A stretch of DNA of 32,000 bases. Origin: Candidatus Saccharimonadota bacterium. Lineage in GTDB: Bacteria > Patescibacteriota > Gracilibacteria > BD1-5 > UBA6164. Both the position numbers and the translations under genes were made by a program. The stretch lies in the NCBI GenBank assembly GCA_965227835.1, contig OZ245768.1:60001-92000 (forward strand), given 5' to 3'. Every line of letters starts with the position of its first letter. Position 1 is the stretch's first letter. The notes under the pieces are model-generated. The model was not told where the DNA came from. It did no database searches and was given only the letters and a program-made list of their open reading frames with translations. Below, piece by piece: positions 5,766 to 29,574 of this stretch.

Positions 5766-5788
5766 ATTTATATTTTTTAATATATATT

Positions 5789-6781: not shown

Positions 6782-6787
6782 TATTTT

Positions 6788-9207: not shown

Positions 9208-9362
9208 AGGTAGTATAACTTATTTTTGTTAAAGAATCAAGTTTAGTTTATTTTTCTGCAAAATATTATTTGGTATTTTGTATTGGTTCCTCACTGTGTT
9301 TTTATACTAAAAAAACATACTATGTTTGTCCTTAAATTAAATTTTTATTATTCATCTTTTTT

Positions 9363-11988: not shown

Positions 11989-12046
11989 AAAAAAGGGGGG
12001 CTTAAATAACCCACCAATTATATAAAAAAATATTAATTTTCAATTT

Positions 12047-13207: not shown

Positions 13208-13268
13208 ATTGTATTAAAAATTAAAAAATAAATTTCCTTATATTTTTCTGATACTGTGAGTTTCAATA

Positions 13269-14120
13269 CTAATGTTTTTTTACTCAAAATCAATGTTTTT
13301 TATCTCTAATATAAAATGAAAAATTTACAAAGTTTTCAATTGGAAATACTATGAATTTTATTATCTTTAGCCTTATCTTTGTAAACAAAGTTACTTTCTT
13401 GTATGAAGCCATAAAAGTTATTTTTTTATAAAATATCATAAGTTCTCTTAGATACCTTACTATACTAAAGAAATTTACAGCTGAGTTACTACTTAAGTTT
13501 ACCCTTACACTAAGTTCTTTTATCTTATAATTCTTTTTTTCTAAGTTATATAAAAACTCTACGTCAAAAGCGTATCAAAACATTTTTACATTTTTTAAGA
13601 ATATTTCTTTTAACTCTTTTCTAAATACTTTTAATCAAGTTTGAGTATCTTTTACAGACATAGAAAATAGCATTTTATTCAAAACTACATTGAAATTAAG
13701 CATTATAATCCTCATTATAGGGTATACTACATTTGATTTTTCATGAGTTTTTGATCATATCACTATGTGATATTTTTCATTTTTTAATAAATATTTTATG
13801 TGTTCTACCAAAGAGTCAGGTTCTATATCCAAATCTGAATCGTAAAAAGCAATTATATCTCAATTTGCTTCCCTCAAACCTTTACTTATGGCAAATCATT
13901 TTCACATATTCACTCAGTAGTCTACTACTTTTATAAAGTCATATTTTTCCTCTAACCTTTTTATTTCTTGGCTAGTATTGTCTTCACTTCAATCATTTAC
14001 CAATATAAATTCAAAATCTATATTTTCTAAATATTTTTTTAAATACAGATTTAAAAATTCCATATTTTTAAATATTTCTTCTCATTCATTGAAGCAGGGA
14101 AGTATTATGGAGGCTATCAT
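13269..14120 (-). CDS. Glycosyltransferase family 2, dolichyl/polyprenyl-phosphate sugar transferase-like
   Basis: 283-codon ORF verified open. Motifs: ILPCFNEGE, LVNDGSEDNT, NMGKGFAISKG, FYDSDLD, DTQTGLKVF. A C-terminal hydrophobic segment is present. Confidence 0.8.
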
Positions 14121-14323
14121 ATTTAAAATTTATTTAAATAAAAAAGTTTTAATCTTTGTATAAATTTTTACTATGTTTTAACAATTCTATCATAAATATT
14201 TACTTATGTAAAAAATTTTCAATTAAAAATTTTAAAAAGTTAATTGTAAGTAATTAATCCTTGATAAATAAGCTCTTTTAAATATTATCATTTTCTAAAT
14301 AAAAAATTCTAATTTTATAAAAT

Positions 14324-15763
14324 ATGACAAACAAATATATTCCTACGATATGACTTGAAATACATGTGAGAATAAAATCAAAAACCAAAATGTTTTGTTC
14401 TTGTCCAAATGCTATTTCTCTTGCTTTAGAACCAAACATAAATACCTGTCCTGTTTGTATGTGATTTCCTGGTATGCTTCCATCTTTGAATAAAGAGGTT
14501 GTTAGATTGGCTGTTATATGAGGTTTAATGATGAACTGTGAAATTAACAAAATATCTAGTTTTGATAGAAAAAGCTACAACTATCCAGATCTTCCTACAT
14601 GATTTCAAACTACTCAAATGTATGAACCTATAGTTTGAGCTTGAAATGTAAAAACTCTAGTTTCAGGTGAGATTAGAGATTTTAATATTCATCATATGCA
14701 TATAGAAAATGATGCTTGAAAACTTACACATGCTTGATGAAAAACTCTTTGTGATTACAACAGAGCTTGATCACCTTTGATGGAAATAGTTACAGAACCA
14801 GTATTTCATAACAAAGATGAAGTTATGGAATTTTTAAAAGAACTTCAAAAATTATTTAGAGCAGGTTGAGTTTCTGATGCTGATATGGAAAAAGGTCAAA
14901 TGAGGTGTGATGTAAATATTTCTATATCTCCCGAGTGATCTAGCGAACTTTGAATTAGAACCGAGACAAAAAATATAAATAGTTTTAGTGCAATAGGTAG
15001 AGTAATAGATCATGAAGTAAACAGACAAATAAACATAGTTGAATCATGAAATTTAGTTGATCAAGAAACTAGATGATGGGATGATGATTCTTGAAATTCT
15101 GTTACTCAAAGAAGCAAAGAAAATGCCATGGATTATAGATATTTTCCCGAACCTGATTTGTTACCATTGAAATTGGACGATAAATTTATACAGGAACTTA
15201 AAAGTAGTTTACCAGAACTTCCAATTGAAAAAAGACTAAGGTATTTAAATGACTACAAACTAAATGGGGATGATGCAAGGCTTCTTACTACAGATAGAGA
15301 ACTTAGTGAGTATTTTGACAAACTAGTTGAGCTTAGCTGAGATTCCAAGAAATCTTGTTCATATATAACAACTGTCCTTCTTTCTATGATAAATGAAAGT
15401 GAAGATATTTCTTCAATTACTCAATTAAAGTTTGATATAAAACAATTAGCATATGTTATAAATTTAGTTAATAAAGATGAATTATCATCAACCAATTCTA
15501 AACAAGTTATAGAAGAATTATTTAAAAATTGATGAGATAGTGATTCTATAATCGATAAAAATAATTTAAGACAAAAAAACGATACTGAAACTCTGGAGAA
15601 AATAGTAGATGAAGTTTTGAAAAATTGTGAAGTCCAGGTTTCAGATTATAAATCTTGAAATACAAATATTTTTTGATTTTTTGTTTGACAGTGTATGAAA
15701 GCTTCTAAATGACAATGAAATCCAAAGATATTTAATGAAATTTTGAAGAAAAAACTAGATTAG
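14324..15763 (+). CDS. gatB: Asp-tRNA(Asn)/Glu-tRNA(Gln) amidotransferase subunit B
   Basis: 479-codon ORF verified open in code 25. Motifs: [72 protein letters not shown] sits exactly on the invariant Gly residues. Confidence 0.95.
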
Positions 15764-15957
15764 TTTTAGTTATTTAATAGATTTTTTTAGTATTAGCCAC
15801 TTTTTTTAATTTATCAATTTTAAAATGAGCTTTATTAAAATAAAGCTAAAGATATTTATCTTTTCTTTTATAAAAAATGCTAATTTTTCATATATAACTT
15901 AAAACCTTTTTATATCAAGAAATTCAATTTATGTTTTTTACTTAAAACCAAACCACA

Positions 15958-17088
15958 ATGGAAATTTACATAGATTTAAAAAAACAAACAAACGATTCAT
16001 ATGATATAGTTTTTACTAAACAAGTATGAGATAAAATATTAGATTTTTTATTGAAACTAAAGAAAAAAAGGGTTCTTATAATAAGTGATTCTAATGTATA
16101 TCCACTTTATTTTGAACCTCTAAAAAAATCAATAGATGAGGATATTTTAGTATATGGTTTCCAGTTTGAAGCTTGAGAAAAAAGTAAAGATATAGAAACT
16201 GTTTTGCAAATATGTAAAAAATTAATAGATCTAAATTTTGATAGAGATGATATACTTATATCTCTTTGATGATGAGTTGTTTGAGATATAGTTTGAATGG
16301 TTGCAGGTATCTATAAAAGATGAATTGATTTTATTCAAATACCTACGACTCTTCTTTCTATGTTTGACTCTTCTGTTTGATGAAAAACTGGTATTGATTA
16401 CTTGGGAATTAAAAACATTATTTGAGTATTTAAACAACCAAAACTCGTTCTTATAAATTGATTATATCTTTCAACCTTGGATGAAGAAGAGATATTATCT
16501 TGATACTTTGAATGATTTAAACATTCTCTTATAAAATCTAGGCACTATTTTGAAAAATATTTAAAAGAATCAGACTTATTTTTTTCAAAAGACTTTTCTA
16601 ATTTAGATAAATCTATTTATGAAAATGTTTCAGTTAAAGTTGAAATAGTGATGAAAGATGAAAAAGAATTTTGAGTGAGGAAATTTCTTAATTTTGGACA
16701 TACACTAGGGCATGCTTTGGAATCTGTATCTGATTTTTGAATAAAGCACTGAGTTTGTGTCTGACTTTGAATGATTTATGCAAATATACTATCAAATAAA
16801 TTGTGAATTCTTTCAAGTAAACTAATGTTTGATATCAACAATTTTCTTTTGAATAAGTTAGCTTTTGTGTGAATAGAATCAATTGAATTTAGTTTTGAAC
16901 AAATTTATGGAAAAATGCTTTTAGATAAAAAAAATACCAATGAAAGTATAGTATTTGTTTTATTAGAGTCTCCTTGAAATATGATTTTTAAATTATTTTG
17001 AAATCAGGATAAATATATATTGAAAGAATCTTATGAAGATTTTAGAATGTTTATTAAAGCTTCTAAAGGGACCTCTGCAAAAAGATAG
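15958..17088 (+). CDS. aroB: 3-dehydroquinate synthase (last 6 codons supplied by the inserted IS end)
   Basis: 376-codon ORF verified open. GGGVVGD is written TGA TGA TGA GTT GTT TGA GAT. Also PTTLLSMFDSSVGGKTG, KNIIG and NFGHTLGHALE. Confidence 0.92.
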
Positions 17089-18274
17089 ATTTAAATTACA
17101 AAAATATAATAAAAAGATTAAAATATGATAAATATTTTAATTTTTTTTTAATGATTATGTCACCATTTAAAGAACAACAAACATTTTTGAATTATTTCCA
17201 AAATGAGTTATGAATTACAAGAACAGAAAAGTTTCTAACAAAATTAGATAAAGTAGTCCCATGGGAATCAATATCAAATAAAATTAATTTATCTAGAGAA
17301 ATATCAGATTGATGAGTTTGAAGACCAAGAATGGAAATACAAAAAATGTTAAAAATACTATTTCTTCAATGACTATATGGATTATCAGATCCGGAAATAG
17401 AAGATCAAATAAGAGACAGAAATAGCTTTCAAAAGTTTCTATGAATATCTGAATCTAAAGATATACCAGATGAAACAACAATATGTAGATTTAGAAATGA
17501 ATTATCAGAAAACTGAAGTCAGGAAACTATATTTACAATGACTCAATTTATTTTAGCTGAAATGTGATTTACAGTAGAAAAGTGATTTATTCAAGATGGT
17601 ACTATAATAGAATCACCAAAATGAAGAAAGAATAATAAATGAGAAAATACAAGAGATAAGGAAGCTAGTTTTACAAAGAAGAATTGAAGAAGTTATCATT
17701 GATATAAAGCTCATATTGAAACAACAAAGAGAGGAGACTTTGTAATGAATACAACATATACGACAGCTAAGATACATGATTCACAATTATCTGATACTTT
17801 AATTACTTGAGATGAGAGTGAAGAGGCATATGGAGATAGTGCCTATATAAGTAAAGATAAAATAAAATTTTTAGATGAGTTATGAATTAAGTGAGAGTTC
17901 AATGAAAGATGATCTAGAAATAATCCGTTGACTTCTTATCAAAAAGAACAAAATAGAATTAAATCTACTATTAGGGCAAGAGTAGAACATCCTTTTTCTA
18001 TTTTAAAGGCTAAATATTGAAATTATAAAACAAGATATAGATGATTAGTTAAGAATGCTATGCACTGGTTTTTATCTTGTGCTATTTATAATTTTGAACT
18101 ATTGGCAAGGAGGTATATATAGCTTTCTAATAGGTGAATTGTGCCTAAATTTGGAAATTATACCTAAAAAAAGGCATAATTCATAGAAATTATCTTATAT
18201 ATTCTTCAAAAAAAGTGATTTTTATTCAAAATCACTTTCTTCTTACTCTTTTTTATAATTTTGCAGAGGTCCCT
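17067..18274 (+). mobile_element. IS5-family insertion sequence (1208 bp)
   Basis: 16-bp perfect terminal inverted repeats AGGGACCTCTGCAAAA (17067-17082) and TTTTGCAGAGGTCCCT (18259-18274). Flanked by the 3-bp direct repeat TAA (17064-17066, 18275-18277). Contains a single DDE transposase gene. Confidence 0.88.
17151..18122 (+). CDS. IS5-family DDE transposase
   Basis: 323-codon ORF verified open in code 25. N-terminal GGVGRPR (DUF772-type), then QDGT, YGDSAYIS and RARVEHPFSILK. It uses TGA = Gly, so the element is adapted to this host. Confidence 0.88.
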
Positions 18275-18290
18275 TAAATTTAAAAGGTAA

Positions 18291-18325
18291 GAGGTAGTCG
18301 TGCTAGCACGACTACCTCTCATTTT
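18291..18325. terminator. Bidirectional intrinsic terminator (28-bp perfect palindrome)
   Basis: GAGGTAGTCGTGCT/AGCACGACTACCTC followed by TCATTTTG. The reverse strand also leads into a T-rich stretch. It lies between the pre-insertion aroB stop and the convergent small ORF. Confidence 0.7.
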
Positions 18326-18328
18326 GTT

Positions 18329-18568
18329 TCACCTTTTTTCGCATTTATAGTAATCTTTTCCAAAAGTCCTATCCACCATTGCATATTGACCTACAAATAT
18401 GTAGCTTGTTGTCCTAGGTATTCTACAACTAACACCATCTGTTTTGAGTATTTCTGCAGTTCTAGCTGTTATAAAAGGTATCATGGACTTTTCTATATCG
18501 CCAGCAATAGCCACTTGTGGGGTGAAAAGAATTAATGCGATAGCAAAACATATATTCAAAAATTTCAT
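18329..18568 (-). CDS. Small secreted protein (signal peptide, 2 Cys); TGA-free ORF with Shine-Dalgarno
   Basis: AAGGAG lies 9 nt upstream of the ATG. Signal peptide MKFLNICFAIALILFTPQVAIA. The ORF ends in TGA 10 nt (18319-18328) from the terminator palindrome. Under code 25 the frame stays open to 18164. Confidence 0.5.
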   Translation of the reverse strand: MKFLNICFAIALILFTPQVAIAGDIEKSMIPFITARTAEILKTDGVSCRIPRTTSYIFVGQYAMVDRTFGKDYYKCEKR

Positions 18569-18638
18569 TGAACAATTCTCCTTTTTAGTTTAAACAAGAA
18601 CTTTAATTCTATTTACTTTTTTTCAAAATCAAATTTTT

Positions 18639-18666
18639 TTGACGAGTAGTTCTTTTTTAATATAAT
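18639..18666 (+). promoter_or_regulatory. Sigma70-type promoter for tRNA-His
   Basis: TTGACG (18639-18644), a 16-nt spacer, then TATAAT (18661-18666). The tRNA starts 15 nt downstream. Confidence 0.6.
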
Positions 18667-18680
18667 TTCTCAACTTTAAT

Positions 18681-18758
18681 GGTGCCTGTAGTTTAGTTGG
18701 TTAGAATATCGGGTTGTGACTCCGAGGGTCGTGGGTTCGAGTCCCATCAGGCACCCCA
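18681..18758 (+). tRNA. tRNA-His (anticodon GTG)
   Basis: Cloverleaf folded by hand. The extra G-1 pairs with C73. Acceptor GTGCCTG/CAGGCAC, anticodon loop TTGTGAC, T-loop TTCGAGT, encoded CCA. Confidence 0.9.
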
Positions 18759-18780
18759 TTTAAAAAACTTAAAAATGCAA

Positions 18781-18813
18781 AAGAGCCGCGTCTAGACGCG
18801 GCTCTTCTTTTTT
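18781..18813. terminator. Bidirectional intrinsic terminator
   Basis: 12-bp perfect G+C-rich stem AAGAGCCGCGTC-TA-GACGCGGCTCTT followed by CTTTTTT. An A-run precedes it, so it can serve the convergent minus-strand ORF as well. Confidence 0.8.
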
Positions 18814-18840
18814 AAATGGTTACTCAGGAACTACATAACC

Positions 18841-19235
18841 TTATATTGTATCTGAAGCTTTTACCAAAATTTCTTTAGTACCTTCTCTGGTCTGTATTTC
18901 CATACCATTTTCTAAGGTTTGCTTTAAATTTACCCTTACAAAATCAAACCTAGCAACCGTTGAACATATCGAAATTATTGCAATAACAACAGCAACTAGA
19001 AATAATAGCATAAAGCCCTTATCTTCTTCAATATCACATTCATACAATTCGAATGAAATCAAAAGTGTCACAAAAGAAATTACTGTGCATATTAAGCAAA
19101 GAAATGTTATAGCCGGTATTGGATCCCATTTTCCTTTGCTAACAAGATCAGGAAAAAAAATGGGGCAATAATAGTAGTAATAATTACGATGATAAATAGA
19201 ATAACTCCTTTATATTCTAATATTTTCTTTTCCAT
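18841..19235 (-). pseudogene. Small 3-TM membrane protein, frameshifted in an A8/T8 run; TGA-free ORF with Shine-Dalgarno
   Basis: AAGGAG lies 7 nt upstream of ATG 19235. The first frame stops at 19109..19107. Adding one base to the run 19153-19160 joins it to the 18841-19071 ORF, giving a 131-aa protein with three hydrophobic helices. TAA stop. Confidence 0.5.
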
Positions 19236-20104
19236 GTTTAAACTCCTTTGTTTGGTTGAGAAAATTTGGTAAGATTATTATTTTGATAATCTCCCAAAGT
19301 AAGAAATGAAGTGCAATTAAAAGAGAAGAAAATATAGTATTCCCCGTAGGGTAATAACATTATTTTCTAATATAATAAGATATGTACTGACAATTAATAT
19401 TCCAAGAGAGAGAAAGTATTGAATTTCATTTAAATAAATGATTAAAGAAAAAAGATATAGCATAAATACTAAAAAGATCAGAATCAACAATAAGCAGAGA
19501 GATATACAGAAATTCAGTAAAAAAACGATGAAACAATAAAAAAGTATATTTAGCACTAGAAGCAGAAATCAAATCATATCAAAGACGATGGCTAACAAAA
19601 ACTCAATCAATGAAAATAAATATGAATACTAATATGAAAAATTTCATAATAGAACAACTATCAATAACAGAAATACAAATGTCCCCAAAAACAATTGCTA
19701 AGAAACGGAATAATACTCAAACAGATAAAAAGAAACATATCTCCCATACAAGTATATATTCTTGGCTAGAAACTGGTATGTGAAATAAATATAAAGAACT
19801 ATTATTATATAAACATAAAGGTTATAGAAAGAAAAAACAACAAACAGAAAGAGTGAAAATTAAAAATAGAGTTAGTATTAAAGATAGACCTGAAACAATA
19901 AATAACAGAGAAGAAAAATGACATATTGAAGCTGATTTAATTGTTTCTAAAAAATGATTTAAATGAGCTATACTTACATTGGTTGATAGAAAGACTAGGT
20001 TACCTAAAATCTTTAAAATAAAAGATAAATCAAGTGAAAATATAATTAATCTAATAGCTTGAGTTAAAGATGATATATGAATTAAATCTGTTACTTTTGA
20101 TAAT

Positions 20105-20722
20105 TAATCCAACACTAAACCACCAGCTCTGCTGGTGCGAGTAGTGGAGGTTTTACCGTTCCGGTAGTTGTGTATAATCTTCTAGGAAGCACCTAGGAGG
20201 GGAATAACTTTTTAAAGATATGTCCCACAAATACGCAAAGCAGTCCCATGTGAATTGGGACTGCACTTACCACATAGTGGTGGTACCAAAGTACCGAAAA
20301 AAAATACTTTTTCAATCAGTTAGAAAAGATATACGAGACACATTTCATGAACTTGCAAAGAGATATGATTTTGAGATATTAAAATGAAATATAACGATAG
20401 ATCATGTTCATCTCGTTTTGAGGATATCTCCAAAATACTCTGTTGCAGAAATTCTGTGAAGATTGAAATGAAAGAGTGCAATAATACTTCATAACAAACA
20501 TAGTAAGAAGAAATGACTGTACTCGAAGAATTTCTGGAGTAGATGATACTATGTAAGTACAGTTTGACTTGACTTGGATATGATAAAAAATTATGTTCAA
20601 CATCAGCAACATAAGGATAAAACCATTGATGGAAATCAGTTAGATTTAAACTGGTAAAAACTATTTTAGCCCCTTCTAGGGGCTTCCATTTAAAGCTACC
20701 AGTTCTACTGGTAGATATTTAC
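20105..20722 (+). mobile_element. IS200/IS605-family element (tnpA only) nested in the IS30 transposase gene
   Basis: No inverted repeats or target duplication. Subterminal hairpins are related: CACCAGC-TCT-GCTGGTG (20121-20137) and CTACCAG-TTCTA-CTGGTAG (20696-20714). The junction is ambiguous by 1 nt. Confidence 0.8.
20220..20657 (+). CDS. tnpA: IS200-type Y1 (HUH) transposase
   Basis: 145-codon ORF verified open. Motifs: YHIVVVPKYRKKIL, DHVHLVL (HUH), LKGKSA, FWSRGYYVSTVG, with several Gly written TGA. Confidence 0.9.
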
Positions 20723-21291
20723 TGAATGGAATTTGCTAAGCATTATTTATTAAATGATATATGAATAGATACTTACTTTTGTGAACCTTATTCTTCTTGG
20801 CAGAAGTGAAGTGTTGAGAATTTAAATAGGATTATCAGGAGATTTTTTCCTAAATGAACTATATTTGATTATGTAAGTGATGAAAAAATAAAAAGTATTT
20901 GCGATATATTAGCAAATACTCCTAGAGAAATACTTTGATTTATTTCCCTTAATCAAGCACACTTTTCACAATCTTAATGTTGTATTTGGAATTATAACAA
21001 AATTTTTTATAATCTCAAAAATAAAAAATTTCTTAATGCTATATTTTCTTCTTTAAGTTCATTTAAAAAATTGCACTTCGGGGTTTAATTCAGGTAATCT
21101 TACTAAAATGTAGTCTAATTACAAAATTTAAAAAGTCAAATAATTTTTTGAGAAAACTTTGATTTATTGCTCATTTTTATATAATTTTTAGGTTATTTTT
21201 ACTATAACACCTTTTTTAATTATATCAAAAATCTGGTTTTCCTAATCTAATATAATTAAAAGTTATTTTATTTCTTAACCATTAAGTTGTT

Positions 21292-22635
21292 ATGACAACT
21301 GATAAAGATATAGTTCTGTTTCAAGAACTATTTGAAAAATCTCCTGAGATTAAATATCCAAAAATTTGAGAAGTTATCTCTGGTGAGATTGAAAAGATAG
21401 AAAAGAAAAACATTTTGGTAAATGTTAATAATCAATTTTCTTGACTAGTTGTGTCAAAAGAAGTTGGTAATACTGTAGATTTAAATGAACTAAAAGAATG
21501 ACAATCTATAGATGTCATGGTTCTGTGAGATTCAGTTGAAAAAGGTCTCTTAATATTATCATTAAAAAGGGCCAATCAAATTAAGTCTCTTAGTAATCTA
21601 GGTAAATATTTTGAATGATGAGATGTAATCACAGTTAAACCAACAGAAGCCAATAAATGAGGTCTTTTGGTTGATATAGATTGACTAAAAGGATTTATCC
21701 CAGTTTCTCAGCTGACACCTATACATTATCCTAGAGTAGAATGAGCTAATTCAGAAAAAATATTAGAACATTTAAACGGACTTATAGGAATTGATTTCAA
21801 AGTAAAAGTTATAAATGTTGATAGTGATTGAAAAAAAATTATTTTTTCCGAAAAAGCAGCTATAGAATGAGATAGATCAAAAGCTTTAGAAGGTTTGAAA
21901 AAGTGAGATATAGTTGAATGAGTAATATCTGGTATACTTTCTTATGGACTTTTTGTTACATTTAACTGACTTGAATGATTAGTCCATGTTTCTGAAATAG
22001 ATTGGGGACATGTTACAGATCCTTCAAAATTCGCAAAAGTTTGAATGAAAGTAAAAGTAAAAGTTATAGGACTTGATAGTGATAAAATATCACTTTCTAT
22101 AAAAAGATTAAAAGAAAACCCTTGGGATGTACTTGCTAGAGAACATAAACTAAATGATGTTATAACTGCACCTATATCTAGAATATCACAATTTTGAGCT
22201 TTTATTGAACTAGCTTGAGGTATACAATGATTGATTCATTTATCTGAAATATCTCACGGTGTTGTAAAAGATATAAGAGAATATGTAAAAGTTTGAGAGG
22301 AAATTAAAGCTAAAATAATAAACTTTGATCCTAATAAAAAAAGGATAGGTTTATCTATAAAAGCTTTGAAAGATTCTCCCAAAACAGATAGTGATAAACT
22401 AGAAGATCTCGATGAAATGGAATCTATGAAAACAGATCCTAAGCAAGAAAAAAATTCCTCTAAAGTAAAAGAAGACAAACCTAAAAAAGACATAAAAGAT
22501 ATAGAAGATGTATCTAAAAAAGAAGATAAAAAACCTGCTAACAAGAAAAAAGCAGAAACGAAAGATTCTTCAGTAGAAGAGCCTATTAAAGGTGATACTG
22601 AAAAACAAGGAGTTTTAGAAGAAACCTCAAAATAG
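21292..22635 (+). CDS. rpsA: 30S ribosomal protein S1 (four S1 domains plus K/E/D-rich tail)
   Basis: 447-codon ORF verified open. Repeated S1 motifs: G.V.G.V..I...G..V, e.g. GDIVEGVISGILSYGLFV and GLIHLSEIS. About half of the Gly codons are TGA. Confidence 0.9.
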
Positions 22636-22747
22636 AAAAATACTTTTAAATATTTTTGGGAAGTTTTTATTTATATTTTAAAAACACAGAGATATTTATT
22701 TAAAGACTTTTTAAAAAAGTTTTGTTTAAATCAATAATATATAAAAA

Positions 22748-23524
22748 ATGGATAAAAAAATTTTGAATGAAATGTTTGATAACTTATTACACATAGGTAA
22801 TAAAACTAACTATTGGAATCCTAGAATGAAGGAATATATATATGGATCTGTGAATGGTATACATGTTTTTAACTTGATAAAAACATCAGGAGAACTTGAA
22901 AAATTAAAATCAGTTTTGAAAGAACAGGTACAAGAAGGCAAAAAAATTCTTTTTGTTGCTACCAAACTTCAAGCTAGAAGTGCTTTTGCAAAACTTGCAA
23001 CAGATACATGAAATTTTTATGTTACAGAGAAATGGGTTCCAGGGCTTTTAACTAATTTTAAAACAATAAGGAAAAGAATAACTAGTTATTTAAAACTATT
23101 GAGAGATTCTGAAACAAATGCTTTTGATATTCTCACTAAAAAAGAAAAGGCTTCCAAACTTTTAGAACTTGAAAAACTGAATAAAGCTTTTAAATGACTT
23201 AAAGAAATGAAAAAAGTCCCTGACTTGATTTTTGTAGTTGATGGTTTTTTTGAATCACAAGCTTTGAGAGAAGCTAATTCTCTTAATATAAAATCTTTAG
23301 CTGTTCTAAATACAAATGGTGATCCTTACAAGCTAGATTCTTTTGTCCCTGCTAATACTAACTCAGTTAAATCTATAAACTATATAGTATGAGAATTAAA
23401 ATCATGTTTTAGTTGAGTAAAGGTTACTCCAAAGACTCTACCTAAGAAACTAACTGATAGAAAAATTTCAGCTTCAAAAGAAGATTTGTCAGAGAAAACT
23501 CAAGAAAAAGTTTGAGAGAAATAA
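22748..23524 (+). CDS. rpsB: 30S ribosomal protein S2
   Basis: 258-codon ORF verified open. Motifs: HIGNKTNYWNPRM, ILFVATK, EKWVPGLLTN, PDLIFVVD. Confidence 0.92.
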
Positions 23525-23562
23525 TGAATAAAATATATTTTAATTTTTAAGTAAAAAATATT

Positions 23563-24348
23563 ATGGCAATCACTGCTACACAAGTAAAAGAACTTAGAGA
23601 AAGGACTTGAATTGGTATGATGGAGTGTAAAAAAGCTCTTACAGAAACTAATTGAGATATGGAGAAAGCAATTGAAGAGTTGAGAAAAAAAGGTTTGGCA
23701 AAAGCTGCTAAAAAAGCAGATAGAAAAGTAAGTGAAGGGGGTATAAAAATTATTAGTGAAGGTTCTAAAGCTTATGTTATCTCTGTTGCTTGTGAAACTG
23801 ATTTTCTTGCTAACTCGGATAAATTTAAATCAATGTTATCAGATATAGCTAATTTTTTAAAAGAAAATGGTTCAGATTCAAAAGAACAAGCTCAAGAACT
23901 TATTAATAAAAATTATGCTCTTGAAATGTGAGAGAATTTACAGGTTTTAAACTATGAAGTTTTAGAGGCTCCTGTTATTGCTTCTTATGTTCATTCAAAT
24001 GGTAAACTTGCTTCTTTGGTTTCTGCTAATAGTGGAACTGATGAAGAAAAAGTTAAACAGGTTGCTATGCATGTTACTGCTTCAAATCCAGAGTATTTAT
24101 CTCCTGAAGATATTTCTGATGAAACTATTGAGAAAGAAAAGGCTATTCAATTGGAGATAATGAAAAATGATCCTAAGATGCAAGGGAAACCAGATGAGGT
24201 TTTGTTGAAAATTATTGAAGGGAAGATGTGAAAGTTTAAATCAGAAATTTCTTTACTTGAACAAGCTTTTATAATAGATCCTAATCAGAAGGTTAAAAAT
24301 TTTATAGGTGAAGGAAGTTTGATTTCTTTTAAAAGATATTCTATATAA
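23563..24348 (+). CDS. tsf: Translation elongation factor Ts
   Basis: 261-codon ORF verified open. Motifs: VKELRERTGIGMMECKKAL, ACETDFLA, VAMHVTASNP. Conserved rpsB-tsf gene order. Confidence 0.92.
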
Positions 24349-24355
24349 TGGTTTT

Positions 24356-24395
24356 AGGTAAGGTTTTAATCTAGTTTTAAAACTTTACCTTTTTT
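24356..24395 (+). terminator. Intrinsic terminator of the rpsB-tsf unit
   Basis: 13-bp stem AGGTAAGGTTTTA...TAAAACTTTACCT (one G-T pair) followed by TTTTT. Confidence 0.75.
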
Positions 24396-24420
24396 CAAAT
24401 GTAAAAATCTTATCTCAATT

Positions 24421-24675
24421 TTCTATCCTTTCTGGGAGTAGAAATAAACTTAGTTGTATCCACCTTATACTGGTTTTCTCCAGTTTACTCTAGCCCGAGC
24501 AAAACCTCATCCTAGCCCAATCAGAAATCACCCCAGTCCTTCTCTAGTTCCACCTCACCTCCGTACAGCCCTCACCCTAACCCTCTCCTTTTGGAAGGAG
24601 AGGGAATAGAACAGAAGAAAGGATAGAAATGGAAAGAATAGAACTGGAAAGGATAGAACAAGGATATTAGAATAT
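24421..24675 (+). other. Non-coding C-rich, G-poor module closed by a 13-bp inverted repeat, followed by five GATAGAA-type direct repeats at 14-16 bp spacing
   Basis: TTCTATCCTTTCT (24421-24433) pairs with AGAAAGGATAGAA (24616-24628). There is an internal 10-bp hairpin CCCTCTCCTT-TTGG-AAGGAGAGGG (24581-24604). (A/G)ATAGAA(C/A) recurs at about 24605, 24621, 24637 and 24652, with a diverged fifth copy ATTAGAAT at about 24666. No ATG-initiated ORF of 60 codons or more in any frame. Confidence 0.6.
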
Positions 24676-24766
24676 TTATTACTTGATTTAGGGTAAGATT
24701 TAGAAATTGTTTTTCTTTTAAATGAATTTTTTAGTGTTTTCTTGATAATCTTTTGATTTTTTATTT

Positions 24767-24841
24767 AGTCCCGTAGTTAAACGGCTATAACACAGGACTC
24801 CAAATCCTGTATTCGGGGTTCGATTCCTCGCGGGACTGCCA
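24767..24841 (+). tRNA. tRNA-Trp (anticodon CCA)
   Basis: Cloverleaf folded by hand. Acceptor AGTCCCG/CGGGACT, anticodon loop CTCCAAA, T-loop TTCGATT, discriminator G, encoded CCA. Anticodon CCA reads UGG only. Confidence 0.9.
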
Positions 24842-24852
24842 GTTAATAGTTG

Positions 24853-24888
24853 AAAAAAAGCTCCTAGACGAAGTCTAGGAGCTTTTTT
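24853..24888. terminator. Bidirectional intrinsic terminator
   Basis: AAAAAAGCTCCTAGAC-GAA-GTCTAGGAGCTTTTTT lies between tRNA-Trp and the convergent protease gene. Confidence 0.8.
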
Positions 24889-24905
24889 AAAATATCTAAA
24901 TCTAT

Positions 24906-25802
24906 TTATTTTATTTGGCTTAATACGGTAGGGAGCATTGATAAATAAAACATACTGAATAAAAATATCGTTAGTGATATATAGCTTAAAATAGCCAGCC
25001 ACAACCACATTATACGCTTATATTTAGAGAGTTTGGGTCTTTTGATATTACTATTCTCAATATTTTCAGTCATTTTTACTTTTAGAATAGAGAAAATTAC
25101 TAATAGAACACCTAAAAGTATATAAACTCCATTAATCCATATATTCTCATTTCCATATCCTTTAATTATTAGATAAACCATAGCAAACCATGCTAATACT
25201 GAAATTCCAGTTTGTATTTTCACATTTATAATCTTTGTAAAAGACATAATAATAATCCAAACTAAAATAATTAATGGATTTTGGAAAAGCAGTGAGAATA
25301 ATGTTAATATTATGATTCCAAAATATTTGCTTCGTTCACTAATAGCTTGAGTAATATGACCACCATCAAGAGGATTAATTGGTATAAGATTGAAAAAATT
25401 AATAAAGAACCCAATTTGACTAATTGTAAGCAAGTTAGCTGCAAGTTCACTTTGTTTGTTATCAATAAGATACCATATAAAAAAGAATATCATAGTAGAT
25501 AATCCTCCAAGAATTGGACCACCTATACCTATTATAGCCTCATCATTCCTATTTTTTATAATTTTGGGTATTGCTATAACTGCACCTAAAAAAGGAATAA
25601 ATATAGGAGGAGGAGTCTCGTAACCAAGTTTTTTTATTGCCAATACATGACCAATTTCATGAAAAAATATAAGTACCACAACTCCTATAGAAACCCATAA
25701 GTTAAAAATAGATTGATATGCAATTATTGAAACTATCATGCTCAATAATGTAACCTTGGAAATATATAAATTTATATGTTTTCCATTTTTTTTCGTATCC
25801 AT
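24906..25802 (-). CDS. Site-2 protease family (M50) membrane metalloprotease; TGA-free ORF with Shine-Dalgarno
   Basis: 298-aa ORF, intact even in the standard code. HEIGH zinc motif and NLIPINPLDGG in hydrophobic helices, with multiple TM segments. AAGGAGG lies 6 nt upstream of the ATG. All 19 Gly are GGN. TAA stop. Confidence 0.85.
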   Translation of the reverse strand: MDTKKNGKHINLYISKVTLLSMIVSIIAYQSIFNLWVSIGVVVLIFFHEIGHVLAIKKLGYETPPPIFIPFLGAVIAIPKIIKNRNDEAIIGIGGPILGGLSTMIFFFIWYLIDNKQSELAANLLTISQIGFFINFFNLIPINPLDGGHITQAISERSKYFGIIILTLFSLLFQNPLIILVWIIIMSFTKIINVKIQTGISVLAWFAMVYLIIKGYGNENIWINGVYILLGVLLVIFSILKVKMTENIENSNIKRPKLSKYKRIMWLWLAILSYISLTIFLFSMFYLSMLPTVLSQIK

Positions 25803-26085
25803 TTTATACCTCCTTTTAAATTAATTAATTGAATGGATATATATATTATAATTATTTTTTACAATAGTCAAAAAAATTTAATCTACCCATCATTATCATT
25901 TAATCTATCCACTTTTTACAAAATCAATATAGGAAAATAATTATAATTGAGGTAATGATAAATTATTTTTATCTTTTAAATTTTTAATATATTTTTTAGG
26001 AGTTTTGTATAATTTTTTTAAACTTATTAATGTTTTTAAAGAATTATTTATTTTAGGCATAATAGTAAAAAATGTGTGGCTAAAA

Positions 26086-26123
26086 AAGAAAGTATTTGGC
26101 ATAATATGGCTAAATACTTTCTT
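26086..26123 (-). terminator. Intrinsic terminator of the 26180-27232 gene
   Basis: 12-bp perfect stem AAGAAAGTATTT / AAATACTTTCTT with a 14-nt loop. On the minus strand it is followed by TTTT. Confidence 0.6.
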
Positions 26124-26179
26124 ACTTTTAGTAATGCAAAATAAAAGTTATTAAAAATTCTGTTTTAATAATTAAATAA

Positions 26180-27232
26180 CTAAGAAATAGCTCTTAATAA
26201 AATCACATCTTCAGCATTTAAAACTGAATTTATCAAAATACTACACATTTCATTTACTTTCATATCTATAGGCAATCATAATCAATCCTTTTCTCATTCT
26301 CTACAATAAAGCAAAGGAACTTTACTATAATCTCATTTTTTATAATATAATCACCTTATTTTATTCCTATCTCTATATAATCATTCTCATACCATACTAT
26401 GAGTTCATAAAATTTTCTCTGGAGTACCATGTGTCATATGTATAGTATCAGAGTAAATAGAACTTTCACTGCGGAAATCTGTTCAATAAGATTGAGAAAC
26501 TTTCACTCATCAAAGCATATCAATTTCTCATGTCCATCTAGTCAAAACTCTAAATTTATTCCATACTTTTGAATTACCTCAATCTATAAAATCTCTTAAT
26601 AACCTTATAAATATTTCAAAATGTGGTAAAAAAGCTCATTGATTCTTTCTGCAATAAAAATTTAAGGTTCTTTGCTTGGGTACTTCCAATATGTCGTTTG
26701 GTATTAAAATATTTTTAGTTAATAATTTAAATTGCCACATATTTACTTCAACAGATTGATTTTCAACTCATCCATTAAATCACTGGGATTTCAAATATTT
26801 TTTAGTATCAAACCTAAAAAGTATTTTTTCTGCCAAAAGTCTCCTTAGTCTTATATTTATACTATTATCAGTAATAAAATTATAAATATGATTAATACCT
26901 ATACGCTTTATATTACTTACAAGTGACATCTTAATACCAATTCAAACATTCTCATCATATAATATTTCTTCAATATCATAAAAATTAAGTCTTTTTACCT
27001 TTTTAATTATTATACCAATATAATACGGACTTGATTCACTAAACTTATGTTGAAGTATAAAATCCTTTATTTCCTCAAATTCTAAACTCTTGATATTTTT
27101 AGATATAGAATTTTTATCCTCTTCTGTTATATTAGGATTATTTAAGAAACCTTTTATTTCACAAAAATCTATTTCCTTTTTAGATGAATTAATTAATTCT
27201 GAGAATCATGGATTCATTTCATGATATTGCAT
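26180..27232 (-). CDS. Hypothetical protein (350 aa), no recognised domain
   Basis: ORF verified codon by codon and open only in code 25 (many TGA = Gly). ATG 27232, TAG 26182..26180. A TTGACA-type promoter lies upstream. No family motif recognised by eye. Confidence 0.7.
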
Positions 27233-27360
27233 TTTTAAATTTTTAGGAATTTATTTGACGATAATATATTTTTATATTTAAATATGTCAATATCTAATTT
27301 TTTAAGATTTAAATATTTGAATATTTTTTATACCATTATAAATAGTATGGAAATTTTTAT

Positions 27361-27388
27361 TTGACAAAAATATATTTTAAGATATAAT
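27361..27388 (+). promoter_or_regulatory. Sigma70-type promoter of the 27419 gene
   Basis: TTGACA (27361-27366), a 16-nt spacer, then TATAAT (27383-27388). The box ATTTGACAAAAATA also occurs at 28465-28478. Confidence 0.6.
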
Positions 27389-27418
27389 TCAAAATATTAT
27401 TTTTTAATTTAATTTTAT

Positions 27419-28135
27419 ATGTCCACAAATGCAAACGAACTTATTCTTGATTTATCAACTGGTAGTGTTTTGGAAAAAAGTATTTTACCAAGTACTAAAG
27501 ATATTTTGGATTCTAATAGTGATAAAATATCTGATATTTTTTTATCAGAATATAAAAAAGTAGAACTTTTTGAAAAAATTGATAACTCAGTGAATGAACT
27601 TAGAGAATGTTTAGCTAAAGATTTATCGTTGATTTGTAATATACTTACAAGACCAAAAACTCTTTATAATAAACTTAGAATTTTATTTGAAAAAGCAATT
27701 TTAAGTAAAATGGATATGAGCCATGTTGAACAAAAAATTTGTAGTTTATATAAACCAGTTCTTCGTAAAGAAGTTGAAATATCTTTTTATATTTATAAAA
27801 AATCTTTATTTAATAATAAAAAGTCTCCAGATACTCATTATGAAACTTCACTTTTAAACTCAATAAAAGAAGCAAAATCAAATGATGTTGATATAAGTGA
27901 TATTGAAAGAAGCTACAATTACTGCCGTAAATTAGAAGATTTGGGGCAAAATTTAATATCATTAAAAGACAGATTATCATCAGTGAAATGATTAAATTTA
28001 GAAAACCCTTGATATGTTTCTGAACTGGCAAGATTATCATTATCTTTAGTGGAAGAGTTTGAATTAGACTTAAAAAAACCTGAAGATATTGAGATATTTT
28101 TATCGAAAGTTGAAAGTAGTTTTTGAAGTATATAG
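27419..28135 (+). CDS. Hypothetical protein (238 aa), probably helical
   Basis: The track ORF 27419-27991 continues through three TGA codons to TAG 28133-28135, directly before a terminator hairpin. Gly-poor, K/E/L/S-rich. Confidence 0.7.
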
Positions 28136-28150
28136 TTATTTAATTTTAGT

Positions 28151-28189
28151 AAAATCTCTCTTATTGCCAAAAGCAATAAGAGAGATTTT
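28151..28189. terminator. Bidirectional intrinsic terminator
   Basis: AAAATCTCTCTTATTGC-CAAAA-GCAATAAGAGAGATTTT lies between two convergent ORFs. Confidence 0.8.
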
Positions 28190-28206
28190 AAACAAAAAAT
28201 TAATTT

Positions 28207-28407
28207 TCATCTCCTAGGTAGAAAACCTCTTATATAAAGAGCTTCTTCTATTGTTTTACCCTTTATATCTTTTTGCTCTATTCCCAACAAATTGGAATAT
28301 CTGTTAGGTGAAGATTCCCATTGTTTTATTTTAGTATCTTTACCCTCCACAAATATCTGTCCATTTCTGTGAATAGATATATTTTTACCTCTTAGCTTAA
28401 ACTGCAT
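28207..28407 (-). CDS. Small basic protein (66 aa); TGA-free ORF with Shine-Dalgarno
   Basis: AAGGAG lies 6 nt upstream of the ATG. All 6 Gly are GGN. The ORF ends in TGA 17 nt before the terminator hairpin. Under code 25 the frame stays open to 27919, antisense to the convergent gene. Confidence 0.5.
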   Translation of the reverse strand: MQFKLRGKNISIHRNGQIFVEGKDTKIKQWESSPNRYSNLLGIEQKDIKGKTIEEALYIRGFLPRR

Positions 28408-28437
28408 TTTTTGCTCCTTTATTTAAATGAGACTTAA

Positions 28438-28465
28438 ATCTTATTTCAAAAAAGCTATATGTCAA
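28438..28465 (-). promoter_or_regulatory. Candidate promoter of the 66-aa ORF
   Basis: On the minus strand: TTGACA (28465..28460), a 16-nt spacer, then TAAGAT (28443..28438). The -35 is one half of the palindrome TGTCAAATTTGACA. Confidence 0.45.
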
Positions 28466-28467
28466 AT

Positions 28468-28496
28468 TTGACAAAAATACATATATTAATTATAAT
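28468..28496 (+). promoter_or_regulatory. Consensus sigma70-type promoter of the 28579-29289 gene
   Basis: TTGACA (28468-28473), a 17-nt spacer, then TATAAT (28491-28496). Confidence 0.7.
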
Positions 28497-28578
28497 ACAT
28501 TTAAATACTAAGTTTTTAATAAAAATTTTAAATCACTAAAAATTCAAGTATATGAAAAATAATCATTTAAAACCAATT

Positions 28579-29289
28579 TTGGATGTAGTTGTAGAAGGTA
28601 AAAGACCTAAAAAGTCTTTTATTTATGTAAAAGATTTATTTGGTGAATCTGTAAAAATAGTTTTGGAAAAAGGTTCTAAATGCCCAACTTGTTGAGAAAA
28701 ATTTGATCCAAATTTAGATGATAATGATGAACAACCAAACAAACATAAAGACCATCTTAGTTGTGAATGGATAAATATTTCTGAACCAAAAATTAAAAAA
28801 TTCAAACTAAAAAAACCAATATCTAAAGTATATGATTATTCGACAGAAGAAAATTCTTTTATCATGGACTCATATTCAAAAATATTTATATCTTCTGTTG
28901 AAATAATTCCTTCATGACAGTTAATACTTATTTGACAAAATATAGTAAAATCACCATGACACTGGTATAAACAATCTTGTACCCAGTGATGGAATCCTTC
29001 TATCTCTCCACTTAAAAATAAAATCTATAATCCTAATGCTAGTAGAATAATCGTAGATAGATATTCAAAATGAAAAACTAAAAAGAGTCCTTGCAGAATA
29101 GTTTTTAATCCTACAGATAAAGAATGAATGTTTATTTATGACTGAGTTTTTTGATGAATTAAGAAAAATTGAAAAAAAATTGATGTTCCGTATTCTTATA
29201 TAGAAAATGCCTTATCTTTTATAATTAAAAATGAAGAATTAAAAAATCAGCTATGATTTAAAGAATTAGCCTTTAATTCACAAGTATAA
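28579..29289 (+). CDS. Hypothetical protein with N-terminal CPxCG zinc-ribbon-like motif
   Basis: The frame is open from 28531 to TAA 29287-29289, verified in code 25. Motifs: KCPTCGEKF and HLSCEW. The first in-frame ATG is far downstream. TTG 28579 is the nearest conventional start. ATG 28551 is one frame off (see findings). Confidence 0.6.
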
Positions 29290-29574
29290 TTTCAAAAATA
29301 CATTCATCTTAATTATATATTTTATGTTTTTAGGAGAACCTGGAAATTTAACATTTTGACAGAAAAAATAATTTTTTTGCTAATTTTCACTAAAAAATTT
29401 TATTCATAAAAATTATCTAAAGAATCTTTACTTTTATCCTGAACGAAGTAATTTTACCACAGGTACCTATATTTTATGCTTTAACAATGTTTATTTTTTG
29501 CAATAAGAACAAAACAATATATACTTCAAAGCATAATCAAAAATAATTCCAAAAACTCTAAAAATATTTTATAA

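Follow-up and report, generated by a model that had tools for sequence, protein, structure and literature searches.

Four minus-strand genes in the recoded chromosome of a Candidatus Gracilibacteria bacterium appear to have entered it from a gene pool that uses the standard genetic code, a reading to which we assign a probability of about 60%, with their odd features representing donor signatures that have not been erased. The stretch of DNA analyzed, a window of 32,000 nucleotides with ~25% GC and ~33 genes, follows code 25, in which UGA is read as glycine. Standard-code genes would have been inserted into strain-variable islands beside tRNA-His, tRNA-Trp and IS elements, probably through plasmid-like or integrative mobile elements, and would have retained a Shine-Dalgarno (SD) site, which the native genes do without, glycine written only as GGN and, in two cases (ORF1 and ORF4), a TGA stop ahead of a hairpin that belongs to the gene itself. 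A standard-code gene without in-frame TGA is translated correctly by a UGA=Gly host, so that the direction of import is a permissive one; only a TGA stop would fail, being read as glycine and giving rise to a C-terminal tail or a stop-less transcript. The direction and timing of the transfer, the expression of the genes and the fate of translation at their TGA ends we infer from the directly observed sequence signatures, presence/absence differences, family memberships and mobile-element link described here. If the import reading is true, the change of UGA to glycine is no block to incoming standard-code genes.

When only TAA and TAG are taken as stops, long ORFs emerge across the window, those of at least 150 codons covering 31 kb, as against 2.6 kb when TGA is also treated as a stop. 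Database matches of its EF-Ts carry the name Candidatus Gracilibacteria. Glycine in 28 native genes is encoded by 381 TGA and 142 GGN codons (73% TGA, ranging from 25 to 100% per gene), whereas the four flagged ORFs have 34 GGN and no TGA, as the preliminary description had stated; within the window a complete lack of TGA among the glycine codons is a feature of these ORFs only. Had ORF3 followed the native rate, its count of 0 in 19 would have a probability of 2e-11; under the lowest rate of any native gene (tsf, 25%) the value is still only 0.004. GGA and TGA stand at 13:0 in the cassettes (as we term the four ORFs) and at 40:381 in the native genes, placing the glycine codons of the former far from the host equilibrium. 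Their codon usage other than glycine is close to native (27–34% GC), which suggests a long stay in a low-GC background without gain of TGA and thus speaks against import. The cassettes had been described as visibly less AT-rich than their surroundings, and their GC content (0.27–0.34 versus a native median of ~0.25) does show an excess, but a small one, with the local GC peaks being partly due to tRNAs, hairpins and a 420-nt spacer.

The second distinguishing feature is the SD site, which among the ~33 genes of the window is found only at the four flagged ORFs. The duplex energies, computed against a generic anti-SD, range from -8.0 to -13.1 kcal/mol at these starts and are no lower than -4.2 at all other genes. 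The sites, all on the minus strand, are AAGGAG for ORF1 (18578..18583, 9 nt before the ATG, -8.9 kcal/mol), ORF2 (19243..19248, 7 nt, -8.4) and ORF4 (28414..28419, 6 nt, -8.0), and AAGGAGG for ORF3 (25809..25815, 6 nt, -13.1). The pattern AAGGAG-N5-10-ATG occurs four times in the window, exactly at the four cassette starts (4/4 versus 0/28 native starts, ~3e-5 by hand count); shuffled windows contain 1.19 on average, with 3 of 100 reaching four. Both duplex energy and motif count thus bear out the earlier claim of a canonical site 6–9 nt before each ATG that is absent elsewhere. SD and zero TGA coincide in 4/4 cassettes and 0/28 native genes, defining two discrete gene classes, and the distinct class proposed for this window is accordingly real. 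Minus-strand promoter-like sites precede ORF3 (TTGACT-17-TAATAT, 25871-25843) and ORF4 (TTGACA-16-TAAGAT, 28465-28438).

The individual genes are heterogeneous. ORF1 (18329..18568, minus strand) specifies a 79-aa orphan with a signal-peptide-like N terminus, whose sole match in database searches was its own 134-aa annotation under code 25. Its stop is a TGA (18331-18329), beyond which code 25 reads on to 18164, the next TAA/TAG lying 55 codons further. ORF2 (18841..19235, minus strand), a membrane protein of ~131 aa with a TAA stop and no TGA, had been taken as one ORF; its 395-nt span instead comprises two frames (19235-19107 and 19071-18841) that are joined only via a 1-nt frameshift. Pseudogene formation or an assembly error probably accounts for the break, and the gene gives the impression of being in decay. 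A homolog with an identical SD is present in the closest comparison contig, L088, at 89% nucleotide identity versus 95–97% in the flanks. ORF3 (24906..25802, minus strand) encodes a 298-aa member of the peptidase M50 (site-2 protease) family with no TGA, 19 GGN codons and a TAA stop. It matches PF02163 at 49.4 bits, above the curated gathering cutoff of 27.2, and retains the HExxH (FFHEIGHV) and NxxPxxxLDG (NLIPINPLDGG) motifs, and is an intact M50 peptidase that shows nothing above 41% identity outside its own genome. Its nearest relatives (39–41% identity) lie on standard-code contigs of 43–50% GC, and each has an SD and a terminator. The suggested standard-code donor is thereby favored for ORF3, but no close donor was found among 5.8 billion proteins, the best matches reaching only 41% (ORF3) and 66% (ORF4), with none for ORF1. 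Had the transfer been recent and the donor a sampled bacterium, such a lack would be surprising.

Strong hairpins (-23 to -28 kcal/mol) lie 3' of all four ORFs, in a region with 10 terminator-like sites against 2.8 expected. The preliminary description of a long perfect GC-rich hairpin abutting each gene nevertheless needs qualification. A hairpin with a perfect stem of 13–15 bp and T runs on each strand (18288..18321), starting 8 nt after the TGA of ORF1, is by its sequence a putative two-way intrinsic terminator belonging to ORF1 itself. That at 18779..18808, conserved in L088, lies between ORF2 and tRNA-His(GTG) (18682..18758, plus strand), a native anchor gene located ~200 nt upstream of rpsA in relatives, and is the predicted terminator of tRNA-His, common to the tRNA and ORF2. 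The third (24860..24882; 10 bp, GC-rich, flanked by A and T runs), on which ORF3 converges, is the predicted terminator of tRNA-Trp(CCA) (24767..24841, plus strand), a further native anchor, and the variable island starts just past it. As the hairpins after ORF2 and ORF3 are kept in L088, which has no ORF3, both are native tRNA terminators; the reported tRNA neighbors themselves are confirmed. The ORF4 hairpin (28152..28188; 16 bp) is AT-rich and lies 18 nt after the TGA, before the converging gene 27419-28135; the 70 nt downstream of ORF4 fold at -27.0 kcal/mol, but the hairpin has no T tract and the terminator scan gave no score there. In integron gene cassettes each ORF is followed by an attC site, an intI integrase is present, and promoters are usually lacking. 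We rejected this identification, given the perfect short-loop stems (two of them tRNA terminators), the lack of an integrase and the presence of promoter-like sites.

Comparison with L088, which is 95–97% identical to the window and covers the sites of ORF1, ORF2 and ORF3, shows that the cassettes are located in strain-variable blocks beside tRNA genes and IS elements (the adjoining transposases being IS5-like, IS30-like and IS200-like). One block missing from L088 (15889..18617) contains a TGA-rich aroB, an IS5-like DDE transposase and ORF1, whose site is empty there. In another (19293..21094), an IS200/IS605 tnpA interrupts an IS30-like transposase; TGA is used by every gene of this block, indicating that these are code-25 IS elements. 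From the tRNA-Trp terminator to the DEAD-box helicase gene stretches a variable island (24915..29500) with ORF3, ORF4 and three further genes that use TGA and have no known domain; it is therefore a mosaic rather than one element. The homology with L088 breaks off at 24914, at the 3' end of ORF3, and the same position is occupied by a NUDIX gene in L088 and by unrelated genes in L009. Five more distant Gracilibacteria (L008–L012) keep the order tRNA-His, rpsA, rpsB, tsf, tRNA-Trp, and the ~85 ORFs of their syntenic region include no cassette and no SD-led gene; ORF3 is at the corresponding site in neither L088 nor these five. The sister genomes thus point to ORF1 and ORF3 as foreign, and the proposal of recent acquisition gains from this and from the mobile-element link of the ORF4 family, but does not extend to ORF2, which L088 shares. 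A status as island genes is partly supported, by a signature unlike that of the host and, for ORF1 and ORF3, by presence/absence; no integrase domain was detected among the island proteins, and there are no clear direct repeats at the junctions. The sharing of ORF2 and the lack of integrase and repeats also tell against import. A PHROG search gave no match below E = 0.01, the weaker ones being mostly of unknown function, and GenBank phage and IMG/VR searches gave no match for the cassettes.

ORF4 (28207..28407, minus strand; 66 aa) provides a link to mobile elements. It belongs to a conserved family of ~65-aa proteins, with 29 representatives at E <=1e-3 and 9 at <=1e-10, most of 64–68 aa and ending in a shared C terminus (...RGFLPR(R)). 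The closest match has 66% identity, and the 66-aa protein is predicted to adopt a confident compact fold (AlphaFold, pLDDT 94.6); searches assigned the protein to no Pfam family, and no structure matched it significantly. Its TGA stop (28209-28207) lies exactly at the normal C terminus of the family, beyond which code 25 would add 95 further codons, antisense to 27419-28135, before a TAA/TAG. Among 13 full-length copies that were read (11 on L091–L100 plus those on L089 and L109), 10 have a TGA stop at this position. On L109 (~40% GC by hand count) SD, TGA stop and terminator are again the same, and the gene adjoins a NUDIX-like ORF without TGA. On L092, L095 and L100 it lies directly downstream of a type IV secretion system (T4SS) coupling-protein gene (Pfam-assigned on L095 only, as PF02534; plasmid matches to the coupling protein were also found), with a PF03432 relaxase also upstream on L095, and ParA-like genes occur on L091 and L098. 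These loci resemble the relaxase and coupling-protein modules of conjugative or mobilizable plasmids, unlike the window, which has no transfer genes. Very tentatively, ORF4 may be an early-expressed leading-region gene.

The same family underlies a second, clearly less probable explanation, namely that the cassettes come from a mobile gene pool of plasmids, integrative elements and phages residing in code-25 bacteria and possibly in standard-code partners, whose genes are kept TGA-free and SD-led by selection rather than recency so as to work under either code, the window copies being cargo or remnants. ORF4-family copies occur in at least four recoded contexts (the window, L106/L107, L103-105 and L091); at 57–67% identity, the window copy included, none was found to contain an internal TGA and all end at TGA, with a strong SD in three of the four and only a weak GAGGT in L091. 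Such a pattern is as readily explained by selection against TGA as by repeated import. Furthermore, the vent plasmid-like contigs bearing ORF4-like genes are mosaics, in which ParA and an MRKT-type gene use TGA at conserved glycine sites, while the coupling protein (0/30 Gly), HsdR (0/32) and a 1047-aa protein (0/96) are TGA-free. Since they also bear genes that require UGA=Gly, an element residing in a code-25 host, and not a standard-code cell, may have been the direct source. SD energies of <=-6 are seen in 15/58 TGA-free but 0/25 TGA-using ORFs of these contigs (Fisher P = 0.004), although the contigs are mutually related and the samples hence not independent. The host-like codon usage apart from TGA also agrees with this explanation, as does the precedent of phages predicted to infect Gracilibacteria and Absconditabacteria, which are compatible with code 11 and lack in-frame TGA (Liu et al. 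2023, mBio, PMC10746230), so that their genes are readable under both codes. Against it, the TGA ends of ORF1 and ORF4, with 55 and 95 codons to the next stop, do not appear tuned for a code-25 host, unlike those of the phages, whose TGA stops are said to have other stops close behind (PMC10746230). For the same reason the notion of a uniform class readable in both codes finds no support: ORF1 and ORF4 have no in-frame TGA only in that they end at one, extending to 134 and 162 aa under code 25. Moreover, the window has neither transfer nor phage genes, ORF1–ORF3 have no phage or plasmid matches, and the presence of such elements in a standard-code cell is a conjecture.

Import is also preferable to the view, which we consider improbable, that these are native genes under a special translation regime, in which a strong SD and UGA avoidance would allow fast or condition-specific expression, for instance when tRNA-Gly(UCA) is limiting. 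High expression does go with a lower TGA share among native genes (tsf 25%, rpsB 38% and rpsA 53% in the window) and is zero in some relatives (tsf 0/15 in L008, rpsB 0/14 in L012), but no SD was detected in these TGA-poor genes of the window or the relatives. The cassettes are lacking in relatives both near and far, ORF3 has relatives outside the lineage, and in the ORF4 family TGA stands at the canonical stop with read-through tails that differ in length and sequence. Least probable of all is an artefact, whether through ORFs arising by chance, DNA that encodes no protein or standard-code contaminant sequence assembled into a chimera, for although ORF1 is an orphan, ORF2 is frameshifted and the AAGGAG...ATG count by itself is only modestly over chance, ORF3 is an intact, Pfam-supported enzyme, ORF4 belongs to a real family and folds with confidence, each cassette of host-like GC is a single gene amid TGA-rich genes on one contig, and ORF2 and both tRNA-side junctions recur in the independent assembly L088.

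Among known systems, tRNA-linked islands and phage "morons" (the latter being single genes that bring along a promoter and a terminator) resemble the cassettes, which are strain-variable DNA with an atypical signature beside tRNA genes and IS elements, each with its own promoter-like site, SD and, for ORF1, terminator; the cassettes differ in that integrase, attachment repeats and prophage backbone are all lacking. Imported genes likewise arrive with a stop codon at which the host no longer terminates in genomically recoded E. coli without RF1, where such stops are reported to be resolved via read-through and ribosome rescue (Ma et al. 2018, eLife, PMC6207430); that system is engineered, with UAG unassigned, whereas here UGA is glycine. 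The code-11-compatible phages are the closest parallel, being mobile DNA tied to UGA=Gly CPR bacteria, and their discoverers argue that recoding of the host does not keep such DNA out. They are free genomes of >20 kb whose hosts were assigned through CRISPR spacers, while every integrated prophage in that study is TGA-dense (PMC10746230). The cassettes, in contrast, are single chromosome-integrated genes without phage genes or matches, two with TGA and two (ORF2, ORF3) with TAA stops, and only they combine the TGA dichotomy with an SD dichotomy. The novelty first claimed for them is thus lessened by these phages, though not wholly anticipated: single chromosomal standard-code-like genes in a recoded bacterium extend the published precedent.

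When TAA and TAG are taken as the sole stops the window yields long ORFs, those of at least 150 codons covering 31 kb as against 2.6 kb with TGA counted as a stop, and its EF-Ts, translated with TGA as glycine, is 74-97% identical to proteins source-named Candidatus Gracilibacteria. Gracilibacteria are reported to read UGA as glycine and to lack prfB (PMC6851277). Within this DNA of ~25% GC, four minus-strand ORFs, namely ORF1 (18329-18568), ORF2 (18841-19235), ORF3 (24906-25802) and ORF4 (28207-28407), were tabulated together with 28 native genes. The native genes write 381 of 523 glycines as TGA (73%; per gene from 25% in tsf up to 100%), whereas none of the 34 glycines of the four ORFs is so encoded, as the preliminary description had stated; for ORF3, 0 of 19 has a probability of 2e-11 at the native rate and of 0.004 at the lowest native rate. 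The claim that Shine-Dalgarno (SD) motifs are exclusive to these ORFs also holds: duplex energies at their starts, scored against a generic anti-SD sequence with the 16S gene lying outside the window, range from -8.0 to -13.1 kcal/mol, and those of every other gene of the window, including rpsA, rpsB and tsf, never fall below -4.2 kcal/mol. The pattern AAGGAG-N5-10-ATG occurs at exactly 4 sites in the 64 kb of both strands, which are the four cassette starts; shuffled sequences contain 1.19 on average, with four attained in 3 of 100 cases, and taken by itself this count amounts to modest evidence. The striking point is the coincidence of the SD motif with the TGA-free state, found in all four cassettes and in 0/28 native genes.

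The native TGA share varies widely and is lowest in translation genes, because the glycosyltransferase/sugar-modification cluster at 50-14120, with a GC content as low as 16-18%, writes nearly all of its glycines as TGA (16 TGA and no GGN in 50-1180). The TGA-free state alone was ruled out as proof of foreignness: some relatives carry native tsf or rpsB genes without any TGA, namely tsf at 10001-10786 of one more distant Gracilibacteria locus (L008; 0/15) and rpsB at 8771-9514 of another (L012; 0/14), both without an SD motif, and thus TGA absence by itself is no foreign mark in this lineage.

Comparison with a close-relative contig, L088, separates conserved from variable DNA. The two are 95-97% identical over 10304-15888 and 21095-24914 and 89% identical over 18618-19292; they differ in 15889-18617 (aroB, an IS5-like transposase and ORF1), in 19293-21094 (an IS30-like gene interrupted by an IS200-type tnpA) and in everything past 24914, where L088 has a NUDIX gene instead. 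This boundary at 24914 falls at the final bases of ORF3, immediately beyond the terminator of tRNA-Trp. Given this pattern of presence and absence, ORF1 and ORF3 were gained or lost at the strain level, and their surroundings are IS-rich, tRNA-flanked variable DNA. As described earlier, three of the four ORFs adjoin tRNA genes: tRNA-His (18682-18758, plus strand) is flanked by ORF1 and ORF2, and tRNA-Trp (24767-24841, plus strand) is abutted by ORF3. ORF2, with an identical SD motif, is common to the window and L088, and its divergence exceeds that of the flanking DNA; it is an older member of the group and apparently decaying. Five more distant Gracilibacteria loci, with EF-Ts 67-84% identical to that of the window, share the order tRNA-His, rpsA, rpsB, small ORF, tsf, tRNA-Trp, and their ~85 ORFs include neither an M50 gene nor an SD-led one; these five are all the Gracilibacteria from a genome-collection scan, whose back-translated patterns are probably broken by TGA-coded glycine.

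The ends of the cassettes required revision. ORF2 is not one ORF as proposed: its 395 nt fall in two frames, with 42 codons from the SD-led ATG and 76 codons joined to them only via a 1-nt shift. In L088 the frame is intact at this break but is lost again a few bases on, and because L088, a 3.37x contig, shows frame breaks of its own, which makes its reading unreliable, the frame state of ORF2 is uncertain in both. ORF1 and ORF4 are delimited by TGA, and the host code adds 55 and 95 further codons respectively, carrying ORF1 through its own hairpin (18288-18321) and ORF4 antisense into the gene at 27419-28135; the database copy of ORF1 is the 134-aa read-through product. The proposed hairpin beside each ORF is present, a strong one lying 3' of all four, but those after ORF2 and ORF3 fall within sequence conserved in L088, which has no ORF3, and are the terminators of tRNA-His and tRNA-Trp. 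A cassette's own hairpin is clear only for ORF1; that of ORF4 (28152-28188) has no T tract.

ORF3 encodes an intact protein of the M50/site-2 protease family (PF02163), with HEIGH and NPLDGG motifs. Its best matches outside its own genome reach 39-41% identity and sit on standard-code contigs of 43-50% GC, each with an SD motif and a terminator hairpin. A more distant homolog is found on a phage-like 73-kb contig, L006 (54% GC), which consists of dozens of small same-strand ORFs and also encodes an RF-1-domain protein of 147 aa, sized like an ArfB-type peptidyl-tRNA hydrolase; the M50 homolog and this protein occupy 10001-10894 and 17729-18172.

ORF4 belongs to a small-protein family with 29 representatives recovered by sensitive search, most of 64-68 aa, which end at ...(R/K)GF(L/I)(PR.), the position of the TGA of ORF4. 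Several database members carry W at this point and then continue, which is the signature of a code-4 gene caller reading past a TGA. AlphaFold predicts that the 66 residues form a compact four-strand-plus-helix domain (pLDDT 94.6); no PDB entry matches the model significantly (best, tyrosinase caddie protein, E = 0.05, TM ~0.5), and the sequence matches no Pfam family. Copies 55-67% identical to ORF4 occur on 12 JGI metagenome loci, several with a GAGGT-type SD motif, and the stop at the canonical position is TGA in 9/12 and TAA in 2/12, L101 breaking at codon 29. A contig of ~40% GC by our own count (L109) shows the ORF4 layout in a standard-code context, with AAGGAGG, the ORF4-family gene, a TGA stop and a terminator in succession and a TGA-free NUDIX-like neighbour.

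The same layout recurs on contigs that use TGA as sense. On L106/L107 (24-26% GC; recJ with 23 TGA and 11 GGN) the ORF4-like gene has a GAAGGAGG SD motif (-13.4), 8 GGN, no internal TGA, and a TGA at codon 67 with a terminator directly 3'. On L103-105 (31% GC; helicase with 25 in-frame TGA) it has an AGGAGG motif, a TGA stop and a terminator, and on the vent contig L091 (30% GC; ParA-like gene with 5 TGA) a weak GAGGT-type motif and a TGA stop. Read-through tails of the ORF4-like genes are 19 to 95 codons long; the post-TGA sequence differs between loci, and hence the tails do not look conserved.

The simplest account, to which we assign a probability of roughly 60%, is that the four ORFs represent a passive one-way import of standard-code genes. 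A standard-code gene, having no in-frame TGA, would be read correctly by a UGA=Gly host, its TGA stop being the sole element expected to fail; the SD sites, GGN-only glycines and TGA stops with terminators could then be donor marks still unerased, and the variable islands the landing places of imported DNA. At the TGA ends, on the analogy of a study of recoded E. coli (PMC6207430), the likely outcomes would be glycine insertion with a tail, or ribosome rescue on a stopless transcript. We infer the direction and timing of transfer, the expression of the cassettes and a usable anti-SD sequence on the ribosome, the 16S gene lying outside the window.

A low-GC mobile pool in which TGA is avoided by selection is a possible but distinctly less probable source. 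Cassette codon usage is near native except for glycine, implying a long stay at low GC without gain of TGA. GGA is one step from TGA and still makes up 13 of the 34 cassette glycine codons, whereas native genes have 40 GGA versus 381 TGA; moreover, ORF4-family copies in four recoded contexts are 57-67% identical to that of the window and none has gained a TGA, and very large databases contain no close donor for the cassettes. A tuned dual-code design is countered by ORF1 and ORF4, which have no backup stop near their TGA. A precedent is found in TGA-avoiding phages of Gracilibacteria, for which a broader host range was suggested (Liu et al., PMC10746230).

The hydrothermal-vent plasmid-like contigs bearing ORF4-family genes (L091-L100) need UGA=Gly themselves. 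In their ParA, the Walker-A glycine and other conserved positions are encoded by TGA on two contigs (L091 4615-5253, L098 9129-9767), and a 94-aa gene right after the ORF4-like gene (L095 10368-10652) has TGA at conserved sites, one of them GGN in homologs. TGA-free genes dominate the rest, including the coupling protein (0/30 Gly), the type I restriction subunit HsdR (0/32), a 1047-aa protein (0/96) and the relaxase. SD energies of -6 or lower are found in 15/58 TGA-free ORFs versus 0/25 TGA-using ORFs (Fisher P = 0.004), a test that is indicative only, the contigs being related to one another. The two-class pattern is thus not unique to the window. On L092, L095 and L100 the ORF4-family gene is preceded by genes for a type IV coupling protein, an 84-aa product and a ~250-aa product; the Pfam assignments come from L095 only, where the coupling protein matches PF02534, the ~250-aa product weakly matches a DnaJ domain, and a PF03432 relaxase also lies upstream. 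The best plasmid matches of the coupling protein are small Desulfotalea and Sulfitobacter plasmids. It is conceivable, if rather doubtful, that Gracilibacteria and other bacteria related to them with UGA=Gly harbour plasmid-like elements in which genes divide by code, with maintenance genes using TGA and transfer or cargo genes SD-led and TGA-free, and that the chromosomal cassettes are their deposits. The ParA-like maintenance genes may need UGA=Gly and hence work only in a recoded cell, and the coupling protein, relaxase, ORF4 family and perhaps the M50 peptidase may be kept SD-led and TGA-free, and so also be expressible in a standard-code partner or prey cell; as a corollary, genes ending in UGA shortly ahead of a terminator may be completed in the recoded host when ribosomes read through the UGA and are then rescued at the transcript end.

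A native class of genes with special expression is improbable, as native TGA-poor genes have no SD motif and the cassettes are missing from relatives, and an artefact is very improbable indeed. Phage origin was rejected: tblastn of ORF3 against 50,697 GenBank phages gave no match, IMG/VR holds no relatives of ORF1, ORF2 or ORF3, PHROG gave no significant matches, and the ORF4 family has one weak 35% match. A known-plasmid origin was likewise set aside, since PLSDB contains no match for ORF4 and its sole match for ORF3 is weak and chromosomal, from Bacillus. An identity as integron cassettes was rejected as well: two of the hairpins are tRNA terminators, no integrase was found, and promoter-like sites are present.

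An altered genetic code is often called a firewall against foreign DNA. Cassettes inside the chromosome would imply that this firewall leaks one way, and that genes written in the standard code can establish themselves in a UGA=Gly genome, recognisable by a double mark of SD motifs and no TGA glycine codons. This mark could trace gene import in recoded bacteria, and the rate of GGA to TGA change could date it. If selection on shuttling elements keeps the TGA-free state, gene traffic would link small epibiotic bacteria and their hosts, with a handle for genetic tools working in both alike. New here are the single-gene chromosomal cassettes, a two-class signature in which SD use is coupled to TGA avoidance, a conserved family of small proteins keeping its terminal TGA in recoded hosts, and plasmid-like elements with mixed TGA use. 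TGA-free mobile DNA associated with code-25 CPR bacteria had been published only as free phages, integrated prophages being all TGA-dense (Liu et al., PMC10746230), in contrast to the single-gene cassettes in the present chromosome.

Several further features of the locus were observed. The spacer between tsf and tRNA-Trp (24349-24766; 420 nt, 34-36% GC) is conserved in L088, the corresponding gap in more distant Gracilibacteria being only 25-70 nt; it holds a hairpin, CCCTCTCC-TTTTGG-AAGGAGAGGG, together with several GGATAGAA-like repeats, matches nothing in Rfam and folds no better than shuffled sequence (z = -1.0). A hidden RNA gene behind the GC peaks was ruled out, Rfam yielding just the two tRNAs in the window. 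The island genes at 26180-27232, 27419-28135 and 28552-29289 have no Pfam or PHROG assignment. In the five more distant loci, L008-L012, rpsB and tsf are separated by a small membrane ORF of ~100-120 aa (9638-9961 in L009); in the window (23524-23563) and L088 the two genes are 38 nt apart, without this ORF. The IS block at 19610-20977, missing as a whole in L088, comprises an IS200/IS605-type tnpA (20220-20657; PF01797) inside the split IS30-like gene (19610-20107 and 20726-20977), and since all its genes use TGA as glycine these elements are native to recoded hosts. At 15958-18122, in a 2.7-kb block missing between gatB and tRNA-His from both L088 and L009, a TGA-rich, housekeeping-type aroB accompanies an IS5-like DDE transposase, which suggests IS-mediated relocation of a native gene.
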